A program made the translations under genes and the position numbers. Positions 749 to 63,480 of a stretch of DNA of 64,000 bases are shown one piece after another. Numbering within the stretch: position 1 is the first letter of the stretch; each line of letters begins with the position of its first letter. The DNA comes from Oceanispirochaeta sp. Its GTDB lineage: Bacteria; Spirochaetota; Spirochaetia; DSM-2461. The notes under the pieces are model-generated. The model did no database searches. It saw nothing but the letters and a program-made list of their open reading frames with translations, and was not told where the DNA came from. The stretch lies in the NCBI GenBank assembly GCA_963663385.2, contig CAXXXD010000004.1, positions 96,001 through 160,000 on the forward strand, given 5' to 3'.

Positions 749-1594
749 TTAACCTTTGACACTTCCCTGGGTTAAACCAGCAACCAGATATTTCTGACCA
801 AGGGCAAAAATAATCATAGTGGGAAGAAGTGCTATGATTATCCCGGCACTCATTATGTCCCAACTCACTCCTGCTTTAGATATAAAAGAGTTCAGAGCTA
901 CCGGTATTGTTAAATATTTATCACTTGAAATAAGCATTACTGCCAGGAAAAGCTCATTCCAGATATTTACGAATGAAAAACTGAATATGGCTACCAACCC
1001 TGGGATACTGGTAGGAAGAATAATTCTGAACAATGCTGTAATGGGGTTACAGCCATCAATGAGCGCCGCTTCTTCCAAAGCTTTCGGTATTTTGTCAAAA
1101 AAAGCTTTCGACATTATTGTGCCGAAGGCCAGAGACAGAGCGATATATACCAGAGATAGGGCTACTAAATTATCAGTTAACCCTAAGAAGGATAGCATCA
1201 GGAATACTGGTATCATAAGAATAAATCCAGGAATCATCTGGGTGAAATATAAAAACATGATATATCCGAACTTTCTTTTTCCGTTATTGCTTCGGGATAA
1301 TGCAAAACCTGAAAATGTACAGATGATCAAACTACCCAAAGATGAAAGTACGGCAACAATGAGAGAGTTCATGAAATACAGTTTGAAGTTTGCAAAACTG
1401 AATAATCTCTCATAACTCTCAAGTGATATCTTTGAAGGGAAATAAATCAGTGGATTCGAATAGATCTCATTCATCGGTTTAAGAGATGTAATAAAAATCC
1501 AGTATAAAGGAGCAATGGCAAAAAGAAGGAAGAGAGACAAGGTCGCAAAACGGAATATTTTACCAACCATGATCTTAAAACTTTTTGTTTTCAT
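749..1594 (-). CDS. Carbohydrate ABC transporter permease (MalG-like)
   Basis: EAA motif LEEAALIDGC, about 6 TM segments, C-terminal GLTQGSVKG. Confidence 0.9.
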   Translation of the reverse strand: MKTKSFKIMVGKIFRFATLSLFLLFAIAPLYWIFITSLKPMNEIYSNPLIYFPSKISLESYERLFSFANFKLYFMNSLIVAVLSSLGSLIICTFSGFALSRSNNGKRKFGYIMFLYFTQMIPGFILMIPVFLMLSFLGLTDNLVALSLVYIALSLAFGTIMSKAFFDKIPKALEEAALIDGCNPITALFRIILPTSIPGLVAIFSFSFVNIWNELFLAVMLISSDKYLTIPVALNSFISKAGVSWDIMSAGIIIALLPTMIIFALGQKYLVAGLTQGSVKG

Positions 1595-9001: not shown

Positions 9002-10177
9002 TCATTTCATTAAAAAACCAAAATCCCCCGCTTTGCCTACTTCTGCCCGGGATGAAAATTCGCTTAAAGTCTCAACCAGGCCGGTTACTTTATTCTTGCC
9101 TTCAATAATTTCAACAGCATGACGGAATTTTACTTCGCTGTAAGGCAAAATTGTCGACACTCTTCCTTGTGTTCGTTCAAAAGCTCTGTTATTGGGCAAG
9201 TCTGTGCAGGGATTCAAACCGGCTACATAACCGTCCGTTTCCGATGCCGTTCTTTTCCACAAAATAGAATACGGCAGTGTGGAAGGATCAAAAGTCACAT
9301 GAACTGCCAGATCCTGACTGGCGTTAGTTAACAGCTGATGGGCGTTGCCTTCTTCATCTGCCAGGGCTTTGCATAGATAAACCTGTTCGATGAATCCGGC
9401 AGAAGGCCCCTGAAGCACGGCGATTTTTTCCGGATCGGTTGTTCCGAATTCGTCTCTGGGGACAAGTCGGGAATAACTGCCGTAGTACCGTGAACCCTCT
9501 TCAAGAAAAGGTTTTCCGAAATTGGTGTGATACAGTATTTCATATTCCCCCGATTCGGAACCCAGGTTGCAAAGGGTGTCTTCAATTGAAAATGAAGCGG
9601 AATCGGATGGAAGTGTTAAGCGGGTCTTCAGGATATAATTGACACCGAACACATTCTGTTCCGGTATTTCTCCCTCCAGTGTCATTTGTCCTTCATCATC
9701 AATCCGAAGAACAACCCTGGAGGCCGGTGTCCATCCAACCTTGCCGTGAAGAGGTAAAAAAACTTTACTTTTCCGGCCTTTATTGTCTGTAAGAACATCG
9801 TCACCCATCGCTCCAGACCACTCAATCCCGCAGCGGTTCAGCATTTCATTAAAACCATAATGACAGCCCCGGCCGCCCAGATCATAAAGGTTTATATATT
9901 GAGGATGGACAATTTCCTTTACAGGAGAGTTCCATCCCAGAAAGTGATGGCCTGCTTTCCCGTCAATAATGCCCATACCCCGGGTAGGGCAAACCCGCAG
10001 ACTGATCAAGCCATTTGAAATCTCTACTATTTCGACACCGGTCTGACGACCTGCTGTCAATGTTGTTTTTCTGCAGTATGCGGCATCACTTATTCCCAGA
10101 GATTTTCCGGATATTGAAAAATCTGATGTTGAAAATGAAGAAGCGCTATCGCTTATTATCCAGGTTGTTTCCATCAT
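9002..10177 (-). CDS. Aldose-1-epimerase-like protein (DUF4432 family)
   Basis: PTRGMGI, GWNSPVKEIVHP, PLHG, ILYHTNFG.PFL. Confidence 0.75.
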   Translation of the reverse strand: MMETTWIISDSASSFSTSDFSISGKSLGISDAAYCRKTTLTAGRQTGVEIVEISNGLISLRVCPTRGMGIIDGKAGHHFLGWNSPVKEIVHPQYINLYDLGGRGCHYGFNEMLNRCGIEWSGAMGDDVLTDNKGRKSKVFLPLHGKVGWTPASRVVLRIDDEGQMTLEGEIPEQNVFGVNYILKTRLTLPSDSASFSIEDTLCNLGSESGEYEILYHTNFGKPFLEEGSRYYGSYSRLVPRDEFGTTDPEKIAVLQGPSAGFIEQVYLCKALADEEGNAHQLLTNASQDLAVHVTFDPSTLPYSILWKRTASETDGYVAGLNPCTDLPNNRAFERTQGRVSTILPYSEVKFRHAVEIIEGKNKVTGLVETLSEFSSRAEVGKAGDFGFLMK

Positions 10178-13286: not shown

Positions 13287-13314
13287 TTGACACTCTCGGA
13301 TTTTCAGTTATATT
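13287..13314 (+). promoter_or_regulatory. sigma70-like promoter of leader copy 1
   Basis: TTGACA-N16-TATATT; very similar to the promoter at 55595-55622. Confidence 0.7.
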
Positions 13315-13332
13315 GGGAGCTAATATTTAACT

Positions 13333-13483
13333 GGCAGACTAAGGACCCTTAATGCTAACGGTGTCTGCTTATATCTTGATTTAATGAGGTGTAGGTAGTA
13401 AATGCAAGGTGTCCGGACTGCAGGGAATTCCCTCACCGGGACGTACTGGAATTCTGCCTTACCTTCTGTAAAAGGCAGAGTTT
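13333..13483 (+). ncRNA. Conserved structured 5' leader, copy 1 (candidate riboswitch/translational attenuator)
   Basis: GCAGAC-TAAGGACCCTTAATGCTAACGGT-GTCTGC core repeated at 55640 and 60052; alternative helix and SD-sequestering hairpin downstream. Confidence 0.75.
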
Positions 13484-14509
13484 ATGAAAAAAGTAGAAAA
13501 AGGTTTTATCTTTACCAGTTCCGCGTATGTTCTGAAGAACAGTCAGGTCAGATATTACGATTCCATAGAGAAAAATCCGGTTGTAGGAGATGTGGTTTAT
13601 GGAGAAATCTGTCATATAGGCCAGCATTCCAGTCTGGAGAATAAATCCGGTCGAATCCATCAAATCCATAATGGCAGCCGGGCTCTTTTTGTCTTCGGTA
13701 ATCGATACGCTCCGGACTATTATGAGGCTTTTGTACCCGACAGTTTTGAGCCGGAAGTGGATCTTCATGCCCGCAGCGGATTAATCGGTACCGTAAAAAC
13801 AAAAAACTCCCTGATCAAGGATCCATCGAGGGTTAGAATCCTGGGGTATCTCTGTGACGAAAGCGGTAAGGTTATCAACACAAGAGATTATCCTCTGATT
13901 GTGCCCAGAAAAAAGGAAAAGGTGTTCCCCCGGTCAAAGATGATTCTTGTCTGCGGAACTGCCATGAATTCCGGAAAAAGCGTATCCGCCGCTTCTATCT
14001 GCTGGGCCCTGTCCAGGATGGGCCATACGGTCAAAGGATCCAAAATCACGGGAACCGCAAGCCTGAAAGATATTCTGCACATGAATGATGCGGGAGCCGA
14101 TTCATTTTCCGACTTCACATACCTTGGATATCCCACAACCTATATGCTTGATGAAAAAGAGATTGTGGAGGTGTTCAATCATATAGATCTTAAATACGCA
14201 AACAATCCGCAGAATTACTGGGTTGTGGAATTTGCCGACGGAATCAACCAGAGGGAAACGGAAATGCTGTTAATGCATCCCGATGTCAGGAAGAGAATAC
14301 ACAAGCTGGTTTTCTGTGCCAACGATGCTTTCGGTGCAATAGGAGGCGTAAAGTATCTAAAGGAAAAGATAGATCTTACGCCTGATCTGATTTCCGGAGT
14401 CTGTACAAGTTCACCTCTGCATATGCGGGAGCTGAGCAAAGTTACAGATATTCCTATTTTTGATAATATGAATATTAACATTGAAGAGATTAGAGAGAAA
14501 ATAGTCTGA
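13484..14509 (+). CDS. DUF1611-related P-loop-like protein
   Basis: GNRYAPD, VCGTAMNSGKS, KITGT, VVEFADGINQRET; family assignment from recalled motifs. Confidence 0.65.
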   Translation: MKKVEKGFIFTSSAYVLKNSQVRYYDSIEKNPVVGDVVYGEICHIGQHSSLENKSGRIHQIHNGSRALFVFGNRYAPDYYEAFVPDSFEPEVDLHARSGLIGTVKTKNSLIKDPSRVRILGYLCDESGKVINTRDYPLIVPRKKEKVFPRSKMILVCGTAMNSGKSVSAASICWALSRMGHTVKGSKITGTASLKDILHMNDAGADSFSDFTYLGYPTTYMLDEKEIVEVFNHIDLKYANNPQNYWVVEFADGINQRETEMLLMHPDVRKRIHKLVFCANDAFGAIGGVKYLKEKIDLTPDLISGVCTSSPLHMRELSKVTDIPIFDNMNINIEEIREKIV

Positions 14510-55594: not shown

Positions 55595-55622
55595 TTGACA
55601 AGCATCGAATTTCAGCTATATT
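55595..55622 (+). promoter_or_regulatory. sigma70-like promoter of leader copy 2
   Basis: TTGACA-N16-TATATT. Confidence 0.7.
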
Positions 55623-55638
55623 TGAACATAACATTCAT

Positions 55639-55817
55639 AGCAGACAAAGGACCCTTAATGCTAACAATGTCTGCTTATATCTTTTTTATTCGAAGGAATT
55701 TTCCTGAAAGGGAAATCGTTGAAGGTATAAGTAGTTTCGTTGTAGGTATATAGGGGGGGAGGTCTCGGTCTCCCTGAACAGCGCAGCTCCTCTCTTCGCC
55801 TTCGAAAAGGAGTCATT
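55639..55817 (+). ncRNA. Conserved structured 5' leader, copy 2
   Basis: AGCAGACA-AAGGACCCTTAATGCTAACAA-TGTCTGCT; alternative helix and SD-sequestering hairpin. Confidence 0.75.
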
Positions 55818-56070: not shown

Positions 56071-57279
56071 TTGAAAGATTTTCTTGTCTTCGAAGGGATT
56101 AGTAAATCCTTCGGATCTGTAGAAGTTATCAAAGATCTGAATCTTAACGTCAAAAAGGGAGAGGTCTTCAGTCTGTTGGGACCATCGGGCTGCGGGAAAA
56201 CCACTCTTCTGAAAATATGCGGTGGATTTGAAGAACCCGATGCAGGCAGGATGCTGTTGAATGGCAAGGATATCCTGTCCCTGCCGGGGCATAAGCGTCC
56301 GGTCAATACGGTATTTCAGAATTATGCCCTGTTTCCGCATCTGTCTGTGGGTGAGAATATAGCTTTTGGTCTGAAAGTTTCCCGCAAAGGGTTTTCCAGA
56401 AAAGAGATTTCCAGGGAAGTGGACTGGGCTCTCGATCTTATTCAGATGAATGAATATATCCATAGCAGACCTTCAGAGCTATCAGGAGGTCAGAAGCAGC
56501 GGGTTGCTATTGCAAGAGCGGTTATCAACAAACCGGAGCTCCTGCTTCTGGACGAGCCTTTGGCTGCGCTCGACCTCAAACTCCGTCAGAAAATGCTGCT
56601 GGAACTGGATCAGATTCATGACGAAGTAGGCATAACTTTTCTTTTTGTAACCCATGACCAGGGGGAGGCTATGAGCCTCTCCGACAGAATCGCCATCATG
56701 AACCTGGGGAAAATTGAGCAGGTAGGATCTCCCGCGGAGATCTATGAAAGTCCTGTTTCCAGTTTTACAGCGGCTTTTATTGGTGATACGAATTTTTTTG
56801 ACGGGATTGTCAAATCCCAGAGTGAAGACGGTCAGTATTCAATACTTGATATTGAAGGACTTCCGTCAGCCCGTTGCTACAACGATCAGGCTCATACAGT
56901 GGGGGACCATATCAACCTGTCACTGAGGCCTGAGAAGATCAGGATCAGCAGGAAAGAACCCGAAACTGACAAGTCCCTGAACATTATTAAAGGGGTTGTG
57001 GAAGATAAGGTCTATCTGGGGGCGTATACAAAATACTGGGTTCGCTGCGGAAACTGGCTGATTGTTGTCCTTAATGCTCACAGGCATTTTCTGCTGGACC
57101 GGAATCCTCCGGAATGGGAAGATGAAGTCTGGCTCAGCTGGCATCAGGACGACGGTTTTATATTGCTGAAATACAGGAAAAAGGACGAAGTCCTTTTAAC
57201 GAATCCTGATGAAAAATATGCCGGGATGACCCCTGATCTACAGCCGGGGGCCATACTGCAGTCGGAAGAAGACTCATGA
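56071..57279 (+). CDS. potA: Spermidine/putrescine ABC transporter ATP-binding protein
   Basis: GPSGCGKTT, RPVNTVFQNYALFPH, LSGGQKQRVAIARA, TOBE-like C-terminus. Confidence 0.9.
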   Translation: MKDFLVFEGISKSFGSVEVIKDLNLNVKKGEVFSLLGPSGCGKTTLLKICGGFEEPDAGRMLLNGKDILSLPGHKRPVNTVFQNYALFPHLSVGENIAFGLKVSRKGFSRKEISREVDWALDLIQMNEYIHSRPSELSGGQKQRVAIARAVINKPELLLLDEPLAALDLKLRQKMLLELDQIHDEVGITFLFVTHDQGEAMSLSDRIAIMNLGKIEQVGSPAEIYESPVSSFTAAFIGDTNFFDGIVKSQSEDGQYSILDIEGLPSARCYNDQAHTVGDHINLSLRPEKIRISRKEPETDKSLNIIKGVVEDKVYLGAYTKYWVRCGNWLIVVLNAHRHFLLDRNPPEWEDEVWLSWHQDDGFILLKYRKKDEVLLTNPDEKYAGMTPDLQPGAILQSEEDS

Positions 57280-58133
57280 AGAAACATGAGCTTGTGCTGA
57301 CAACTCCCTCATTCCTCTGGCTCAGTATATTTTTTATTATTCCATCGGCTCTTGTCCTCTTTATCAGCTTCAGGGGAACCGACTCTTATGGCGTCCTTAT
57401 GCCGGTATGGACACTGGATGCGTACAGGTCCCTTTCCGGGATGAATCTGATGCCGGTTATTATCAGGACCCTCAGGCTCAGTCTGTATACCACTTTGATC
57501 TGTCTGATCCTTGCCATTCCGGCCGCCTATGCCATGTCCCGATTGAGCAGGGGGGCGCAGACAATTCTGTTAATGATTCTGGTTGTTCCCTTCTGGACGA
57601 ATTTCCTTATCCGCATCTATGCCTGGAAAGTCCTGCTTCATCCCGATGGATTTATTAAGCAGATTTTTGTCTTTCTAGGGCTGATCGATCAGAATACGAC
57701 CCTTCTCTATACGGAAGGGGCCGTGCTTCTCGTTCTGGTCTATACCTATCTACCTTTTGCCCTGCTCCCCCTATACAGCGCTGCCGACAGCTTTGATATC
57801 ACACTGCTTGATGCCGGCAGGGATTTGGGAAGCAATACACTGCAGCTTATAATCAGGGTTTACCTTCCCGGTATCCGACAGGGGATTATTAATGCGGTCC
57901 TGGTTGTTTTTATCCCGGTCATGGGCAGCTACATCATTCCTGAAATTGTCGGTGGTCCGAATTCGGAAATGCTGGGAAACAAGATTGCCCAGTATGTATT
58001 CACTGACAGGAATATTCCCCGGGCAGGAGCCCTCTCGGGATTTCTGATTCTCATTATCCTCCTTCCATCCCTGATCTCTCTTATAAACAGGGAGAGTCCG
58101 GCCAAAAGCCGGAAGGAGCTGGTGCAGGCATGA
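57276..58133 (+). CDS. potB: Spermidine/putrescine ABC transporter permease
   Basis: PFWTNFLIRIYAW, YTYLPF..LPLY, DAGRDLG. Confidence 0.88.
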   Translation: MKKHELVLTTPSFLWLSIFFIIPSALVLFISFRGTDSYGVLMPVWTLDAYRSLSGMNLMPVIIRTLRLSLYTTLICLILAIPAAYAMSRLSRGAQTILLMILVVPFWTNFLIRIYAWKVLLHPDGFIKQIFVFLGLIDQNTTLLYTEGAVLLVLVYTYLPFALLPLYSAADSFDITLLDAGRDLGSNTLQLIIRVYLPGIRQGIINAVLVVFIPVMGSYIIPEIVGGPNSEMLGNKIAQYVFTDRNIPRAGALSGFLILIILLPSLISLINRESPAKSRKELVQA

Positions 58134-58906
58134 AAAGGAAATCGGCTTTTCCGATGATAATACTCATACTGATTCTTGTTTTCTTCTACCTCCCCCTGTT
58201 TGTACTGGTCATCAATTCATTCAACGCATCCCGGGTCTCTTCAGTATGGGGGGGATTTTCTCTGAAATGGTATAAGAAGCTGCTGGGTGACCAGAATCTG
58301 CTCCGCTCTGTCAAAAATACTGTGATTGTAACAAGTGTCTCGGTATTCTGTTCAACAGTACTGGGGAGTCTGGCGGGTGTGAGCATTGCCCGTTTCAGGA
58401 GCAGGGTGCAAAAAGTGCATTCAGTCTTTATCGCTCTCCCCCTGATCATGCCGGATATCCTGATCGGTATCAGTCTCCTTCTGTTCTTTATCTCATTCAG
58501 GATTCAGCTCTCTCTGCTGACGATTATAATAGGGCATATTACCTTCTGTATCAGTTATGTGGCTTCTACGGTTCAGGCCCGGTTTCAGAATTTTGATTTT
58601 TCCCTGATAGAGGCGGCCCAGGATCTGGGTGCTGACAGATGGCAGGTGTTATGGAAAATATATCTGCCCCTGCTGGCGCCGGGAATCCTCTCCGGTGCCA
58701 TGCTGGCCATGACTCTGTCTCTGGATGATTTTATTATCAGTTTTTTTACGGCGGGGCCGGGTGCTTCAACCCTGCCCATACAAATTTACAGTATGATCCG
58801 TCACGGCTCACCCCCTGTGATTAATGCACTTTCCACGCTTTTTATCGGGTTCACGTTTCTGTTCCTGCTGGTTTATCAGCGGATCTCAAGGAGATTAGAT
58901 CAATGA
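58130..58906 (+). CDS. potC: Spermidine/putrescine ABC transporter permease
   Basis: GFSLKWY, LIEAAQDLGA, SLDDF, TLPIQIYSM. Confidence 0.88.
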   Translation: MKRKSAFPMIILILILVFFYLPLFVLVINSFNASRVSSVWGGFSLKWYKKLLGDQNLLRSVKNTVIVTSVSVFCSTVLGSLAGVSIARFRSRVQKVHSVFIALPLIMPDILIGISLLLFFISFRIQLSLLTIIIGHITFCISYVASTVQARFQNFDFSLIEAAQDLGADRWQVLWKIYLPLLAPGILSGAMLAMTLSLDDFIISFFTAGPGASTLPIQIYSMIRHGSPPVINALSTLFIGFTFLFLLVYQRISRRLDQ

Positions 58907-59949
58907 AAAAAAACTTTTATTACCTGCTGTCGGTTATTGTTTTACTGGCTGTTGTTCTGGGCGGATGTTCCAGAGAGAGCAACCGGAAACTCTATCTGTA
59001 CAACTGGTCCGATTATATCGATGAGGAACTGGTAAAGGCCTTTACAGAAGAAACCGGTATCCAGATTATTATGGACTACTTTGATTCAAACGAGTCCATG
59101 TATGCCAAGTTACGTTCCGGAGCCGATGGTTATGATATTGTATTTCCCACCAGCTATATGGTGGAAATCATGAACGCCGGAGGCATGCTGCAGAAAATCG
59201 ATCATGGAAAGCTGGCGAACCTGAAGAATATTGACCCTAAGTTCACCGTCCTTTCGGTCGATTCCGAAATGGAGTACTCTGTTCCCTATATGGTCAGTAC
59301 TACCGGGATAGGGTATCTGGAATCCGGGCTGGGGGAAGTTGAATCTTTGTCCTGGGATATCTTTGCTTCCCCGGATTATTCATCCAAAATGACAATGCTT
59401 AATGATGTGAGAGAGACGATCGGGGCTGCTTTAAAGTACCTCGGTTACTCCTACAATTCCAGGTCCGGACAGGAGCTGGCGGAAGCCAGAGATCTACTTA
59501 TTTCCTGGAAGAGGAATCTGGCGAAATTTGAGAATGATCAGTATAAGAACGGACTGGTCAGCGGAGAGTTTTCCATATGTCAGGGTTACTCGGGGGATAT
59601 CCTTCAGGTTCAGGAAGAGCGGGATGATCTTCGCTTTATTGTACCAAGAGAGGGCACTTCCATCTCCATTGATAATATGGTGATTCTCAGGAATGCGAAG
59701 AATACGGATGCGGCTTATGAGTTTATTGACTATATGTTAAGGGGTGAAGTTGCTGCCTCCAACATTGAGTATGTGTACTACCTGGCTCCCAATACGGCGG
59801 CATACGGTCTTCTGAGTGATGAAATTCGAAATGATCCGGCTGTCTTCATTTCTGATGATGTACTTGAGAATTCCGAGATTCTTCTGGATCTGGGGGATGA
59901 TAATGAACTGTATAGTCGAACCTGGGATGAAATAAAGTCTGCAAAATGA
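58903..59949 (+). CDS. potD: Spermidine/putrescine-binding lipoprotein
   Basis: Lipobox LGGC; YNWSDYID, FDSNE.MYAKL, YSVPYM, YSGD. Confidence 0.88.
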   Translation: MKKNFYYLLSVIVLLAVVLGGCSRESNRKLYLYNWSDYIDEELVKAFTEETGIQIIMDYFDSNESMYAKLRSGADGYDIVFPTSYMVEIMNAGGMLQKIDHGKLANLKNIDPKFTVLSVDSEMEYSVPYMVSTTGIGYLESGLGEVESLSWDIFASPDYSSKMTMLNDVRETIGAALKYLGYSYNSRSGQELAEARDLLISWKRNLAKFENDQYKNGLVSGEFSICQGYSGDILQVQEERDDLRFIVPREGTSISIDNMVILRNAKNTDAAYEFIDYMLRGEVAASNIEYVYYLAPNTAAYGLLSDEIRNDPAVFISDDVLENSEILLDLGDDNELYSRTWDEIKSAK

Positions 59950-59983: not shown

Positions 59984-60011
59984 TTGACAATCTGTAAATA
60001 TGGATTATTTT
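59984..60011 (+). promoter_or_regulatory. sigma70-like promoter of leader copy 3
   Basis: TTGACA-N16-TATTTT. Confidence 0.5.
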
Positions 60012-60051: not shown

Positions 60052-60197
60052 ACAGACTAAGGACCCTTTATGCTAACAAAAGTCTGTTATCATCTTCATG
60101 TGTGCAGAAAGGTCTTGGAGTTGATTTCAGGAATGTTTCGTAGGGGGGATTCCCCTCTTTTTCCATCATGCCTCTCCTCTCGTGAATAGAGGGATAA
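60052..60197 (+). ncRNA. Conserved structured 5' leader, copy 3
   Basis: ACAGACT-AAGGACCCTTTATGCTAACAAA-AGTCTGT with compensatory changes relative to copies 1 and 2. Confidence 0.72.
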
Positions 60198-60272: not shown

Positions 60273-60285
60273 ATTGGGGGAAATT

Positions 60286-61356
60286 ATGGATACTGATGAA
60301 TTAGTGGATAACGCTTCAGGTCAGTTGAAATCCGTATTGGAATCTCTAACTGGTTTAAGAGATGAAGTTCTGGATTCCTCAAGGAGTCTGGAGGAGAGGC
60401 TTGAGTCATACCAGGATATTATTGCCTCGGAGGTCGGGGACACCATCCTGAGCAGGATGAGAAATTTAGAGAGAAATGCGGGACTGAAACAGCTCTATAT
60501 CAAATTTGAAGGCAGTAACCCCTCCGGTTCACAGAAAGATCGAATTGCGTTTGCCCAGGTTGATGATGCCATGCGGAGGGGGTATAAAAAGATCGTATTT
60601 GCTACTTGCGGAAATTATGGCGTTGCTATTGCCTTTGCCGCATCTCTGGCCGGGATTGAATGTAAAATCTATATTCCGGAAACCTACCATACAAAGAGAG
60701 AAACTGAAATCCTGAAATTTGGAGTTCAAATTGTCAGAAGAGGCAAGGACTATGAAGAATCTGTTTATCTGTCCAGTCGAGAGGCTGTCGAGTTTGACTG
60801 TTATGATGCAAATCCGGGGGGAGTAAACACAAACCTGCAGATCAAAGCCTATGCAGAGATATCTTATGAAATTTACGATGAGTTGAGAGATGCTCCTGCC
60901 ATAGTGGCTGTTCCAGTATCAAACGGGACTACATTGACCGGGATTTACAGAGGATTTGTCTCTCTGTACAGAAGAGGGAAAACCTCAAGAATTCCCAGAA
61001 TAATAGCAGGTTCAAGTTCAAAGAAGAACCCCATTATTGTCTCTTTCAAACGGGGACTGGATGTTTGTGAAGATCTTGATCCGGCTACTGTGAAAGAATC
61101 GGTAGTCAACGAACCTTTGATTAACTGGCACTCAATAGATGGCAATATGGCATTGAGCGCCCTTAAAGAGTCACAGGGCTGGGCATCGGATGTCAGTGAC
61201 AAGAGCATGATGAAATATGCCAGTCTTCTTAAAAATCAGGAGGGATTGTCTGTTCTGCCGGCTTCAACAGCCGGTTTAATAGCCCTTGTGAAGTATAATG
61301 AAATGCAATCTCTTCCGGGAGATCGTTATGTCGCTGTTATTACAGGAAGGAAATAG
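60286..61356 (+). CDS. Fold-type II PLP-dependent enzyme (threonine synthase-like)
   Basis: KFEGSNPSGSQKDR PLP-lysine motif, ATCGNYG, VPVSNGT; N-terminal helical extension. Confidence 0.85.
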   Translation: MDTDELVDNASGQLKSVLESLTGLRDEVLDSSRSLEERLESYQDIIASEVGDTILSRMRNLERNAGLKQLYIKFEGSNPSGSQKDRIAFAQVDDAMRRGYKKIVFATCGNYGVAIAFAASLAGIECKIYIPETYHTKRETEILKFGVQIVRRGKDYEESVYLSSREAVEFDCYDANPGGVNTNLQIKAYAEISYEIYDELRDAPAIVAVPVSNGTTLTGIYRGFVSLYRRGKTSRIPRIIAGSSSKKNPIIVSFKRGLDVCEDLDPATVKESVVNEPLINWHSIDGNMALSALKESQGWASDVSDKSMMKYASLLKNQEGLSVLPASTAGLIALVKYNEMQSLPGDRYVAVITGRK

Positions 61357-61358
61357 GT

Positions 61359-62429
61359 ATGTATATCGATGGTCATGCTGTTGTATATTGTGAGGGAGCT
61401 TTTGCATCGACATATGGGAAAACGGCTCATGGTCTTGTTCGCTATACGCAAAGGTATAATCTGGTTGCGGTCATTGACAGTAGTCTGGCCGGAAGGGATT
61501 CCGGGGATTTTCTTGATAATGCCCCTAATGGTATACCCATAGTCTCATCCCTTAATGAAGCATTTAAAGTAGCGAACTCTCAAACGGTAGAGTTATCCTA
61601 CTTTGTTCTGGGGATTGCCACTGATGGCGGATATTTAACTCAGGATATCAGGTCTGCTGTTATTGAAGCTCTGGAGTCTGGATTGAATGTTGATTCCGGA
61701 CTTCATGACTTTCTTAATGACGACAGGGAAATCAGACTCCTGGCTGAATCATACGGTCTTGGTATTCGTGATATCAGAAAACTGGACGGGAACAGCAACC
61801 ACATGTTCACTGGCAAGATTGAAGAGGTTAAAGCCATAAGAGTTGCGCTGCTTGGCACGGACTCAGCCATCGGAAAAAGGACGACAGCCTGGATAATTAC
61901 CAATGCCATGGCAGACAGGGGGCTCTCGGCAGAATTCATCGGAACAGGCCAGACGGCATGGCTGCAGGGGGCAGACTACAGTATTGTCATGGATTCATTA
62001 CTGAATGATTATGTCAGCGGTGAACTGGAACATATTGTGTGGAAGGCCTGGACTGAAAAAAAAATGGATTATGCCATAATTGAAGGTCAGGGCAGCCTCA
62101 TGAATCCCGGATATCCCGGTGGCTTTGAGATTTTGGCTGCGTGCAGACCCCACGGGATTATTCTTCAGCATTCTCCCTCCCGGAAGGAGTACGACGGATT
62201 TCCGGGGTATCCTCTGGATAGGATAGAGGACCAGATTCACGCTATTGAATTCCTGTCAAAAAAACCGGTAGTCGCCATTACAATTAATCATGAAGGTATC
62301 CGGCGTGATAAAATTGCTGAGGAGTGTCAGGCCCTGGAAAACAAGCTGGGGATACCAGTCGTTGATCCTCTGGTGGATGGTGCAGAACGGATTATTCCGG
62401 TTATTGAAGAGCTGAAAAATGAAAATTGA
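61359..62429 (+). CDS. DUF1611/DgcN-like protein (putative N-acetyltransferase)
   Basis: GKTAHGLVRY, SGLHDFL, GTDSAIGKRTT, GTGQT, IEGQGSL. Confidence 0.82.
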   Translation: MYIDGHAVVYCEGAFASTYGKTAHGLVRYTQRYNLVAVIDSSLAGRDSGDFLDNAPNGIPIVSSLNEAFKVANSQTVELSYFVLGIATDGGYLTQDIRSAVIEALESGLNVDSGLHDFLNDDREIRLLAESYGLGIRDIRKLDGNSNHMFTGKIEEVKAIRVALLGTDSAIGKRTTAWIITNAMADRGLSAEFIGTGQTAWLQGADYSIVMDSLLNDYVSGELEHIVWKAWTEKKMDYAIIEGQGSLMNPGYPGGFEILAACRPHGIILQHSPSRKEYDGFPGYPLDRIEDQIHAIEFLSKKPVVAITINHEGIRRDKIAEECQALENKLGIPVVDPLVDGAERIIPVIEELKNEN

Positions 62430-63480
62430 TGATTTTGAAGTAGTAAAAGTCTGTTTACAGATGAAGGACCCCTATGAGGTCGCCTATGAAAAGTTTGACA
62501 AAGCAGAAAACCTGCTGATCAGAATCAGCGCCGGGAAACTGCATGGATGGGGGTGTATTGCTCCCGATCCTCATGTCACAGGCGAAAATATTGAAGACGT
62601 TTATAGAAAATCTTTAGAGATCCTTCCGGAAGTTCTTCTTAAAAGAGATCCCTTCAGGAAAGCGCTCATAATGAAATATCTGAAAGCGGCAGCTCCGGGG
62701 TTGTTCAGCCTCTGGGCAGGTGTTGATACGGCTCTCTGGGACCTGCTGGGCAAACAGGCCCATCTGCCAATCTGGAAAATCCTGGGAGGATATCGGAACT
62801 ATATCAGTACCAGTGTTACCATAGGTATCTGTGGAATCGACGAGACCCTGGAAAGGGCCCGGGATTTTGAGCTTCAGGGGTTTCATATTCTCAAGATAAA
62901 GGGCGGGAATGATGTTTCGGAGGATATAGCACGGCTTCAGGGACTCCGCTCGGCTCTGGGAACGGATATGAAAATCCGATTTGACGCAAATCAGGGTTAT
63001 TCTGTTGAAGAAGCTCTTTTCTTTGTCAAAAATATAAAAGAACTCGACATTCAGCTGTTTGAACAGCCGACGATTAAATCCAAACCCGATCAGTTGGGTG
63101 CAATTATAAATAAAACAAATATACCAATTATGGCAGACGAAAGCCTGGTTTCTCTTCTGGATGCTTTTTCTCTGGTAAAAAAAGGCCTGATAGATCTGAT
63201 GAATATTAAACTGATGAAAGTGGGCGGGATCACAGAGGCCATCCAGGTCGATGGTCTTGCAAGGGCCGCCGGAGTGGAGGTTATGGTCGGATGTATGGAC
63301 GAAGCGGCTTTGGGTATTTCAGCAGGTCTGCATTTTGCCCTCAGTCGAAAAAACATCAGGTTTGCAGACCTGGATGGCCATCTGGGATTGATTGATGATC
63401 CGTCAATAGAATGCATTTCATTAAACAGGGGGAAACTTTATCCTTCCGGTTCTCCCGGATTCGGCTGGGCAGGGATGTAG
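62419..63480 (+). CDS. Enolase-superfamily dipeptide epimerase/N-acyl-amino acid racemase (L-Ala-D/L-Glu epimerase/DgcA-like)
   Basis: KIKG, RFDANQGY, EQP, MADES, NIKLMKVGG, DLDG. Confidence 0.88.
   Translation: MKIDDFEVVKVCLQMKDPYEVAYEKFDKAENLLIRISAGKLHGWGCIAPDPHVTGENIEDVYRKSLEILPEVLLKRDPFRKALIMKYLKAAAPGLFSLWAGVDTALWDLLGKQAHLPIWKILGGYRNYISTSVTIGICGIDETLERARDFELQGFHILKIKGGNDVSEDIARLQGLRSALGTDMKIRFDANQGYSVEEALFFVKNIKELDIQLFEQPTIKSKPDQLGAIINKTNIPIMADESLVSLLDAFSLVKKGLIDLMNIKLMKVGGITEAIQVDGLARAAGVEVMVGCMDEAALGISAGLHFALSRKNIRFADLDGHLGLIDDPSIECISLNRGKLYPSGSPGFGWAGM

Follow-up and report, generated by a model that had tools for sequence, protein, structure and literature searches.

A new leader RNA family of Spirochaetia, very probably cis-regulatory, upstream of polyamine and other genes

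What is the short sequence that recurs ahead of three sets of genes in the genome of an Oceanispirochaeta species, and does it act as a regulatory RNA? We analyzed a stretch of 64,000 nucleotides (nt) from this genome (GenBank assembly GCA_963663385.2, contig CAXXXD010000004.1, positions 96,001 to 160,000 of the forward strand), hereafter the window, in which a first-pass annotation made from the letters alone had proposed a novel riboswitch or attenuator in front of the gene starting at ATG 13484, with two further copies downstream. The promoter, hairpin P1 arms, core, tail, hairpins and ATG assigned to copy 1 were all confirmed on the sequence at the coordinates given (Table 1). The 19-nt core, AAGGACCCTTAATGCTAAC, occupies 13341-59 in copy 1 and recurs at 55647 with no mismatches (copy 2) and at 60059 with one mismatch (copy 3), all on the + strand. 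Three occurrences in the window compare with none expected from 100 dinucleotide shuffles, confirming the claimed recurrence ahead of same-strand genes. Across the whole 5.3-Mb genome, a pattern scan and a covariance model of the core (R1, built from 19 sequences) found these three copies only, with R1 E-values of 8.6e-19 to 1.3e-15. Because a reversed control pattern also matched the genome seven times at <=3 mismatches, we used only matches with zero or one mismatch together with covariance-model scores.

The three elements very probably represent a conserved cis-regulatory RNA, and a tie to polyamine homeostasis is likely. The fuller reading, toward which we lean with modest confidence, is that they are copies of a leader RNA confined to Spirochaetia that marks a polyamine-homeostasis regulon and toggles between folds. 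Every copy has a near-consensus promoter-like site on its 5' side and same-strand genes on its 3' side.

The element matches no known RNA family. A cmscan search of the whole window with Rfam 15 (4227 covariance models) gave no matches at gathering threshold and nothing meaningful in the leaders, in agreement with the first-pass annotation, which had matched the element to no riboswitch consensus. At E<=10, leader 1 matched only SSRC10, a streptococcal small RNA, with 15.6 bits against a threshold of 56; five homologous loci searched at E<=5 returned four chance-level matches, none of them on the leader. Even at these relaxed limits (E<=10 for leader 1, E<=5 for the five loci) there was no match to the SAM clan. 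The element was also not described in the literature reached by full-text search, supplements being outside that search, and a term search within Narunsky 2024 likewise gave nothing. We regard it as a new family of RNA whose mechanism, that of a structured cis-regulatory leader, is of a known kind.

Searching Spirochaetota with R1 recovered homologues confined to Spirochaetia. Within the family, which is the whole order, 19 of 38 genomes matched at E<=0.001 (16 of the 23 of good quality); they have 1-4 copies each and represent 5 of the 6 genera. Among 151 genomes sampled from the class, 16 had matches at E<=0.01, from several families; one of these (G073) has no loop in the alignment and is probably a false match. 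Neither the remaining families in the class sample (151 genomes) nor the rest of the phylum sample (151 genomes) yielded the motif; in the latter, besides the window's genome, the other 150 gave only eight matches with E-values of 0.0096-0.035, which we took as chance level. An exact-pattern scan of one genome per species over 185,579 species returned 27 stretches, all titled as spirochaetes (Spirochaetia, Spirochaetales, Spirochaetaceae, Salinispira, Oceanispirochaeta, Thalassospirochaeta and Spirochaeta), and a metagenome scan with one stem-free exact pattern returned seven. Searches of the families of two genomes (G060 and G084) produced no new members. After duplicates and three false regex matches were dropped, the final set comprised 55 distinct leaders. 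All belong to Spirochaetia, and, as their genomes are related, they do not count as independent of one another. The leader always lies on the same strand as the downstream gene, with a recognized gene on the 3' side of 53 of the 55, which bears out the proposal of a real, conserved, strand-specific leader RNA.

In one locus (L112, G015:C1), a pair of leaders that belong to different subtypes point away from each other at 9039 (-) and 9200 (+), about 160-175 bp apart, and the same arrangement occurs in L015, L093 and L100. One leader of such a pair heads a small protein and potABCD, and behind the other come a second paralogue of the small protein and then an RNase D-like gene.

The most conserved part of the leader is the hairpin P1, a stem of 6-8 bp (consensus [G/A]CAGAC / GUCUG[C/U]) that encloses a nearly invariant loop of 23-25 nt. 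The loop follows the consensus N-A[A/C]GGA[C/A]CC-NNN-A-N-GCUAAC and ends in a purine-rich linker of 3-5 nt. In the model-fitted alignment of 30 distinct rows, six stem pairs are 100% paired, and two of them change on both sides: at the base, 19 rows have G-C, 7 have A-U and 4 have G-U, and at the apex 29 have C-G and 1 has U-A. Because G-U pairs occur in the stem (GCAGGC/GUCUGC and GCAGAC/GUCUGU), P1 is read as an RNA helix rather than a DNA palindrome.

A second helix, P2, abuts P1. It is formed by the 9-10 nt right after P1 and a segment that lies 14-80 nt further downstream, and in subtype A it joins UUAUAUCUU to AAGGUAUAA. In copy 1 this is the pairing that the first-pass annotation had drawn over 13 positions, G-U included, between the tail CTGCTTATATCTT (13365-77) and GAGGTGTAGGTAG (13386-98); RNAduplex gave it -15.1 kcal/mol, with z -3.6 and p 0.005 against 200 shuffles, in its favor. 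The tail-to-downstream duplex was significant against shuffles (p<=0.05) in 46 of the 55 leaders, with a mean z of -3.06, and two leaders of speA, which have no P2, are among the nine exceptions. Within 35 subtype-A leaders, 99.8% of cells are paired and all changes are one-sided, from U-A to U-G; covariation in P2 is seen only when subtypes are compared and among a few divergent members. By eye, the helix is kept with other letters in subtype B (UAUCAUCUUC:GGAGUUGGU) and subtype C (UGUCAUCUUC:GGAGUUGUG), and in the divergent members L073 (CUAGGAAUU:GGUUUUUAG), L070 (GAACAUCU:AGAGGUGUU) and L014. An RNAalifold consensus of 19 leaders of the pot type contained only P1 and P2 (8 bp each), with nothing conserved between P2 and the invariant GGAG.

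P2 can be extended by 3-4 nt into the 3' arm of P1. Four pairs of this extension are standard in 27, 30, 33 and 35 of the 35 subtype-A rows, and the extension is kept as CUGC:GCAG in L070, CUGC:GCGG in L075, UGC:GUA in L073 and CUG:CAG or UGC:GCA in subtypes B and C. Because the extension overlaps the P1 3' arm, the full P1 and the extended P2 are mutually exclusive. The competition between helices proposed for copy 1 is thus conserved, including in divergent members that build the helix from other letters.

The 5' half of the P1 loop is often complementary, though more weakly, to RNA within ~55 nt past P2. Over 37 leaders, the mean duplex energy of the loop with the downstream RNA was -12.65 kcal/mol, where shuffles gave -9.52 and the reversed loop -8.9, and the complementarity reached p<=0.05 in 13. 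The unconstrained minimum free energy (MFE) fold of subtype A is an alternative fold in which P2 is extended and the P1 5' arm and loop are paired downstream. In copy 1 the partner in unconstrained MFE folds is the segment at 13404..13421; the loop-downstream complementarity of this copy by itself has a p of 0.215. The subtype-B leaders, copy 3 included, have the loop-complementary segment overlapping the G-run of a hairpin that precedes a run of U's. Four of the eight subtype-B leaders were folded as far as this hairpin, and in three of them the MFE pairs the loop with the G-run and has no terminator hairpin; copy 3 keeps the terminator.

Copy 3 is the only one of the three window copies with a terminator-like site. 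Matches of the terminator scan in subtypes A1 and A2 were not read as terminators, as they were Shine-Dalgarno (SD) hairpins or lay at scattered positions. In copy 1 the SD hairpin pairs TCTGCCTT (13453-60) with AAGGCAGA (13472-79) and contains the anti-SD CTGCCTTACCTT (13454-65), to which the segment 13386-98 had been reported as complementary. Read by eye, the two are complementary but not continuously, with 5 + 6 bp around a 1x2 internal loop. The relay drawn from this complementarity stood in part. RNAalifold of the four copy-1-type leaders returned P1, the P2 core and a helix between GGUAG, at the end of the P2 3' strand (13386-98), and CUGCC of the anti-SD; the latter is kept in three of the four homologues and is CUGCA in the fourth. 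However, in single-sequence folding the SD hairpin of copy 1 is present in the MFE and persists when P1 is forced. Between P2 and this hairpin lies the stem at 13422-33, an equivalent of which was predicted in the four homologous leaders with five consensus pairs changing on both sides. In the two speA leaders the SD lies within ~8 nt of the P1 end and, by eye, loop GGACC can pair with the SD and its spacer. A universal pseudoknot between loop GGACCC and a downstream GG(N)UCC was considered and rejected; such downstream elements are present in some leaders, L045, L051 and copy 1 among them, and absent from many.

Table 1. Positions of the leader elements and downstream genes of the three copies, in window coordinates
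Copy	Feature	Position	Strand	Remarks
1	Promoter-like site TTGACA-N16-TATATT	13287..13314	+	11/12 consensus positions; consensus match alone
1	Hairpin P1, GCAGAC (13334-39) / GUCUGC (13363-68), 23-nt conserved loop UAAGGACCCUUAAUGCUAACGGU	13334..13368	+	
1	Helix P2, core UUAUAUCUU:GAGGUGUAG	13365..13398	+	Extension CUGC:GUAG overlaps P1 3' arm
1	Segment GCAAGGUGUCCGGACUGC	13404..13421	+	Complementary to P1 5' arm and 5' half of loop
1	Hairpin AGGG-AAUU-CCCU, AGGGAATTCCCT	13422..13433	+	
1	Hairpin UCUGCCUU / AAGGCAGA	13453..13479	+	Over weak SD region, just 5' of ATG 13484
1	Protein of 341 amino acids (aa)	13484-14509	+	
1	GNAT acetyltransferase, 161 aa	14512-14997	+	
2	Promoter-like site TTGACA-N16-TATATT	55595..55622	+	11/12 consensus positions
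2	Hairpin P1	55640..55674	+	R1 76.7 bits, E 8.6e-19
2	Helix P2, tail CUGCUUAUAUCUU:GAAGGUAUAAGUAG, around variable hairpin	55671..55734	+	-16.0 kcal/mol, p 0.005
2	SD AAGGAG	from 55807	+	
2	Acidic protein, 67 aa	55818-56021	+	
2	potA, potB, potC, potD	56071-59949	+	
3	Promoter-like site TTGACA-N16-TATTTT	59984..60011	+	10/12 consensus positions
3	Hairpin P1, ACAGAC/GUCUGU	60052..60087	+	Basal A-U replaces G-C
3	Helix P2, tail CUGUUAUCAUCUUC:GGAGUUGAUUUCAG	60084..60130	+	-12.6 kcal/mol, p 0.005
3	Terminator-like hairpin AGGGGGGAUUCCCCUCU, then UUUUU	60142..60164	+	Site as called 60142-60158; 2 sites vs 0.2 expected in shuffles
3	PRK06381 'threonine synthase'-type pyridoxal phosphate (PLP) enzyme, DUF1611 protein, enolase-superfamily epimerase	60274..63480	+	

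Two further similarities concern the sequence around the conserved helices. The promoter spacers of copies 1 and 2 (13295-13314 and 55603-55622), and also those of their genus-level homologues L009, L010 and L030, share ATTTCAG-N-TATATT, so that conservation is not limited to the -35 and -10 hexamers; it may reflect a duplication or an extra DNA site. In the pot leaders of the genus (copy 2 at 55700-55760, L009 and L010), a second GGUAUA(A/U) lies ~14 nt past the P2 3' strand. Behind it comes a G-run hairpin (GGGAGGUCUCGGUCUCCC in the window) that is conserved, with an inner stem that varies from genome to genome.

The genes behind the leaders are what connects the element to polyamines. They were tallied over the 55 leaders, with flanks of mostly <=1.5 kb. 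The first gene encodes a very acidic 67-aa protein in 39 leaders, a 341-aa protein of no named family in four, ribosomal protein S21 in three, a RimK-family ligase in three, a PLP enzyme followed by DUF1611 in two and speA in two; nothing was recognized in the remaining two. After the acidic protein, the flanks contain potA in six leaders, speA in three, the PLP enzyme in three and a RimK-family ligase in one. In the window, PotA of copy 2 scored 361.2 bits on TIGR01187 (cut-off 355.6), and PotB, PotC and PotD are the best matches for their proteins, below curated cut-offs. The operons of genomes G015 and G016 likewise consist of the small protein and then potA, potB, potC and potD. In G009 the leader heads speA (827.6 bits, cut-off 369), a carboxynorspermidine synthase-like gene (407.7 bits, below the cut-off of 800), nspC (454.5, cut-off 409) and agmatinase (196.6, cut-off 174). 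The gene set, in potABCD, speA, nspC and agmatinase, shows the coherent association with the metabolism and transport of one compound that is used to recognize riboswitches. Because uptake genes and a complete agmatine/carboxy(nor)spermidine route are both represented, we tie the element to polyamines.

The remaining genes are less easily placed. The acidic proteins form a family of 66-83 aa with N-terminal (K)LWF(V/L/I) and C-terminal EDYPDEYD (for example L006:1654-1857 and L018:1086-1289) and a weak match to DUF7336 (14-25 bits). An AlphaFold model (predicted local distance difference test score 89.6) had no fold match in the PDB at E<=0.001, the best being Tic22 (E 0.71) and acidic anti-CRISPR DNA mimics (E 1.9-3). 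In one locus (L113, G002:C1, 9039-9338 (-)) the small-protein gene stands behind a subtype-B leader and is followed by a 99-aa RRM-type RNA-binding protein with 54 bits on NF058537, below the cut-off of 100. The 341-aa protein of copy 1 belongs to no Pfam or NCBIfam family (its only match, to CbiA/P-loop, is sub-threshold at 17.4 bits), has no sequence relative in the PDB at E<=1 and, when compared with the DUF1611 protein of copy 3, showed no detectable similarity. The GNAT acetyltransferase follows it in three of the four leaders of this kind, and the remaining locus (L110) ends before the place where the GNAT gene would be; as a guess, the pair may act on polyamines, for example by acetylation. 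The trio of PLP enzyme, DUF1611 and epimerase found behind copy 3 also stands behind the motif in G146. RimK-family alpha-L-glutamate ligases directly follow the motif in three genomes and follow the acidic protein in a fourth (L116, L086, L090 and L041). The ligase of G060 (L116, G060:C2, 686-2250) scores 225.5 bits on TIGR00768 (cut-off 143.4) and precedes a 168-aa protein of no named family.

We propose that the leader toggles between a state in which P1 is formed and the alternative fold, in which P2 is extended and the P1 loop is paired downstream. An effector that stabilizes the P1 loop would decide between the folds during transcription; the most likely candidate is a polyamine, for example spermidine, to which the RNA itself would bind. 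The read-out would be set by the downstream platform. In copy 3 and its kin, holding P1 would free the G-run, allow the terminator to form and turn the genes OFF, whereas in copies 1 and 2 and in the speA leaders control would be exerted by structures around the ribosome-binding site. That the RNA itself is the sensor, and so a true riboswitch, is the possibility we prefer as to the sensor, tentatively and at less than an even chance; we prefer it because the loop is long, invariant and asymmetric and because the platforms differ while the hairpin stays the same.

Several results weigh against this proposal. The covariation by which the first-pass annotation had proposed to judge the helices is thin: two P1 pairs change on both sides, and the other four never vary in the 30 distinct rows. 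Type A has no two-sided change at any pair of P1 or P2, and such changes as there are stem from a few lineages and were partly read by eye on the model-fitted alignment. A stem and loop this close to invariant fit a protein-binding operator equally well as an aptamer. The complementarity of loop and downstream RNA is heterogeneous and not significant individually in 24 of the 37 leaders. Cognate and non-cognate loop pairs barely differ (-12.65 versus -11.88 kcal/mol), so the complementarity reflects conserved loop letters more than co-evolution. In subtype A (copy 1, copy 2, L030 and L048) the alternative fold is more stable, by 3-15 kcal/mol, than one in which P1 is forced and the loop left free, which makes a purely thermodynamic ligand switch implausible; P1 would instead need to be trapped while the RNA is being transcribed, the situation of riboswitches under kinetic control.

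The platforms raise further difficulties for the same proposal. A terminator by the strict rule is found at the expected position in only three of eight subtype-B leaders and in none of seven subtype-C leaders. In no subtype does the ensemble accessibility from SD to AUG differ consistently between the two states: with P1 formed and with P2 extended, the respective values are 0.45 and 0.44 in A1 (n=27), 0.40 and 0.41 in A2 (n=7), 0.46 and 0.45 in B (n=8) and 0.51 and 0.45 in C (n=7). The first-pass annotation's complete translational ON switch therefore finds no more than partial support, and we assign no polarity to copies 1 and 2. The folding programs used do not model pseudoknots, which may matter to the read-out. 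S21, RimK, DUF1611, the PLP enzyme and the epimerase are without a shown polyamine link. Contigs of a metatranscriptome run (X1; 0.08 of sampled words) cover parts of potC and potD and not the leaders; as contigs show neither the starts nor the ends of transcripts, they have no bearing on the leader. These contigs, from a public rhizosphere metatranscriptome, are identical to parts of potC and potD (window 58578-59788), so the organism or a very near relative was present in that sample.

If a protein rather than the RNA senses the effector, P1 would be an RNA operator for a trans-acting protein (a dedicated regulator, CsrA or a ribosomal protein such as S21) that senses polyamine or ribosome status and, when bound, stabilizes P1 or blocks the adjacent ribosome-binding site. 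We regard this as somewhat unlikely, and it accounts for a good deal. A stem and ~15 loop positions that are nearly invariant across families are typical of protein operators, the P1 stem hardly covaries, S21 and RimK-family genes are in the gene set, and a P1 that ends ~8 nt before the SD, as in the two speA leaders, suits steric repression. GGA is invariant in the P1 loop, and GGA or AAGG motifs appear again in the junction and the SD. CsrA binds A(N)GGA in hairpin loops; this genome has a CsrA gene (95.3 bits), and the SD is GGAG in 19 of 19 A1 leaders. However, the SELEX (systematic evolution of ligands by exponential enrichment) consensus for CsrA needs only a short GGA loop, which leaves the invariant GCUAAC and the 23-25 nt loop unexplained. 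No candidate regulator gene is consistently linked to the 55 leaders, and their commonest neighbor, the very acidic 67-aa protein, is unlikely to bind RNA. The conserved overlap of P1 and P2 and the loop-complementary segment point instead to a conformational switch, for which a simple operator has no need. One paper reports binding of spermidine to small RNAs rich in GGA in Pseudomonas (PMC13382137), which we take as a lead rather than as evidence.

The other explanations concern the kind of signal and the kind of molecule. A non-specific sensor of polycations or Mg2+, an RNA thermometer or a stability element, with a fold balance that shifts with bulk polyamine or Mg2+ and no selective pocket, would agree with the two competing folds of similar energy in subtype B, with a pseudoknot-like loop-downstream pairing that ought to be cation-sensitive and with ribosome-related genes (S21 and RimK) sharing the leader with polyamine genes; polyamines are described in the available sections of PMC10853860 as broadly altering RNA folding. 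The ~15 invariant loop positions exceed what such a sensor needs, and we consider it improbable. A DNA operator, in which a transcription factor binds the inverted repeat GCAGAC-N23-GTCTGC just 3' of the promoter, would draw on the perfect 6-bp repeat near the -10 box in copies 1 and 2. It was rejected as very improbable: G-T 'pairs' (GCAGGC/GTCTGC and GCAGAC/GTCTGT), which the repeat tolerates, have no meaning in double-stranded DNA; the spacer lacks symmetry and is strongly conserved, yet ranges in length from 23 to 25 bp; the promoter lies at distances of about 20 to 40 nt; and the orientation is always that of the downstream gene. We find it hardly credible that the leader is an upstream open reading frame attenuator in which loop AAGGA serves as SD for the AUG in AAUGCUAAC and ribosome stalling senses polyamine, even though the three window copies have AAGGA 6 nt before an AUG that opens short frames and polyamine-sensing upstream frames are known in speFL and mdtJI (cited in PMC10319736, in its accessible portion). 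The triplet is AAG, AGG or ACG, not a start codon, in 13 of 55 leaders, the 3-5 nt linker shifts the frame across the 3' arm, and the peptides of the three copies have only MLT in common; a leader peptide was rejected on the missing start codons and the frame that is not kept. Mimicry of 16S rRNA was also discarded. Helix 45 of the genome's own 16S rRNA (GCCGUACC-GGAA-GGUGCGGC) shares only CGGAA with the loop, and the resemblance of the tail UCAUCUUC to the anti-SD UCACCUCC is expected of any anti-SD-like relay element.

The cis-regulatory leader that we favor can be set beside known RNAs of similar topology or gene context. The potC RNA motif (RF01751) is an orphan motif named for its association with a polyamine transporter gene. 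Its only cmscan match, in L024 at 883-929 (+), has 22 bits against a gathering score of 44 (E 2.2) and lies off the leader, which is near 1500 (-); the match is at chance level and our element is not a member. SAM-II, preQ1-II and fluoride riboswitches are small pseudoknot riboswitches, and the two speA leaders could, by eye, form a similar H-type topology through loop GGACC, with the ribosome-binding site in the fold. They differ in that there is no similarity in sequence or to the Rfam models, and the loop-downstream pairing is partly supported.

For regulation by polyamines, the accessible text of Salvail et al. (Cell Rep 2023, PMC10853860) describes the spermidine riboswitch as a rare SAM-I variant and a transcription-terminating OFF switch of polyamine biosynthesis genes; in that text this class is the only experimentally established polyamine riboswitch, and its authors expect further classes. 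Our element resembles it, as far as that account goes, in being a cis-acting leader of polyamine genes and in the OFF switching by termination predicted for copy 3. It differs in having one large-loop hairpin and an adjacent helix, in lacking any SAM-family match and in also heading potABCD. Brewer et al. (RNA Biol 2021, PMC8632094) present potE and odc1, in the portion available, as candidate regulatory RNAs of polyamine-related genes, odc1 being a large-loop hairpin with a pseudoknot. These share with our element their position upstream of polyamine-related genes and are set apart by the description there of their taxa (Veillonella and alphaproteobacteria) and sequences; no Rfam match connects them with our element, though which of these motifs are in Rfam 15 was not checked. 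In another spirochaete, Borrelia burgdorferi, 5' fragments of potB respond to spermidine with post-initiation down-regulation, according to the sections at hand of Petroni et al. (Nat Commun 2023, PMC10319736). The two cases have in common a spirochaete and the potABCD genes, but those sections map the Borrelia effect inside the potA/potB coding sequence and ascribe it to translation-coupled events.

That the element is a second, structurally unrelated and compact class of polyamine-sensing riboswitch, a large-loop hairpin and helix that governs uptake and biosynthesis through several platforms and over a wider regulon, is a speculative possibility and on present evidence rather unlikely. If true, it would be the first riboswitch known to govern potABCD uptake plus the arginine decarboxylase / carboxy(nor)spermidine route, with OFF platforms (terminator and occlusion of the ribosome-binding site) and possibly ON platforms (the 341-aa/GNAT pair and S21). 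The polyamine regulon of free-living spirochaetes would then take in the acidic protein family, the 341-aa protein with its GNAT acetyltransferase, the PLP/DUF1611/epimerase trio, RimK-type ligases and S21. An RNA of this compact and unrelated kind, placed ahead of uptake as well as biosynthesis operons, would offer a directly testable candidate. Even with a protein as the sensor, the element would be a new and widely reused operator that gives functional annotation to its genes.

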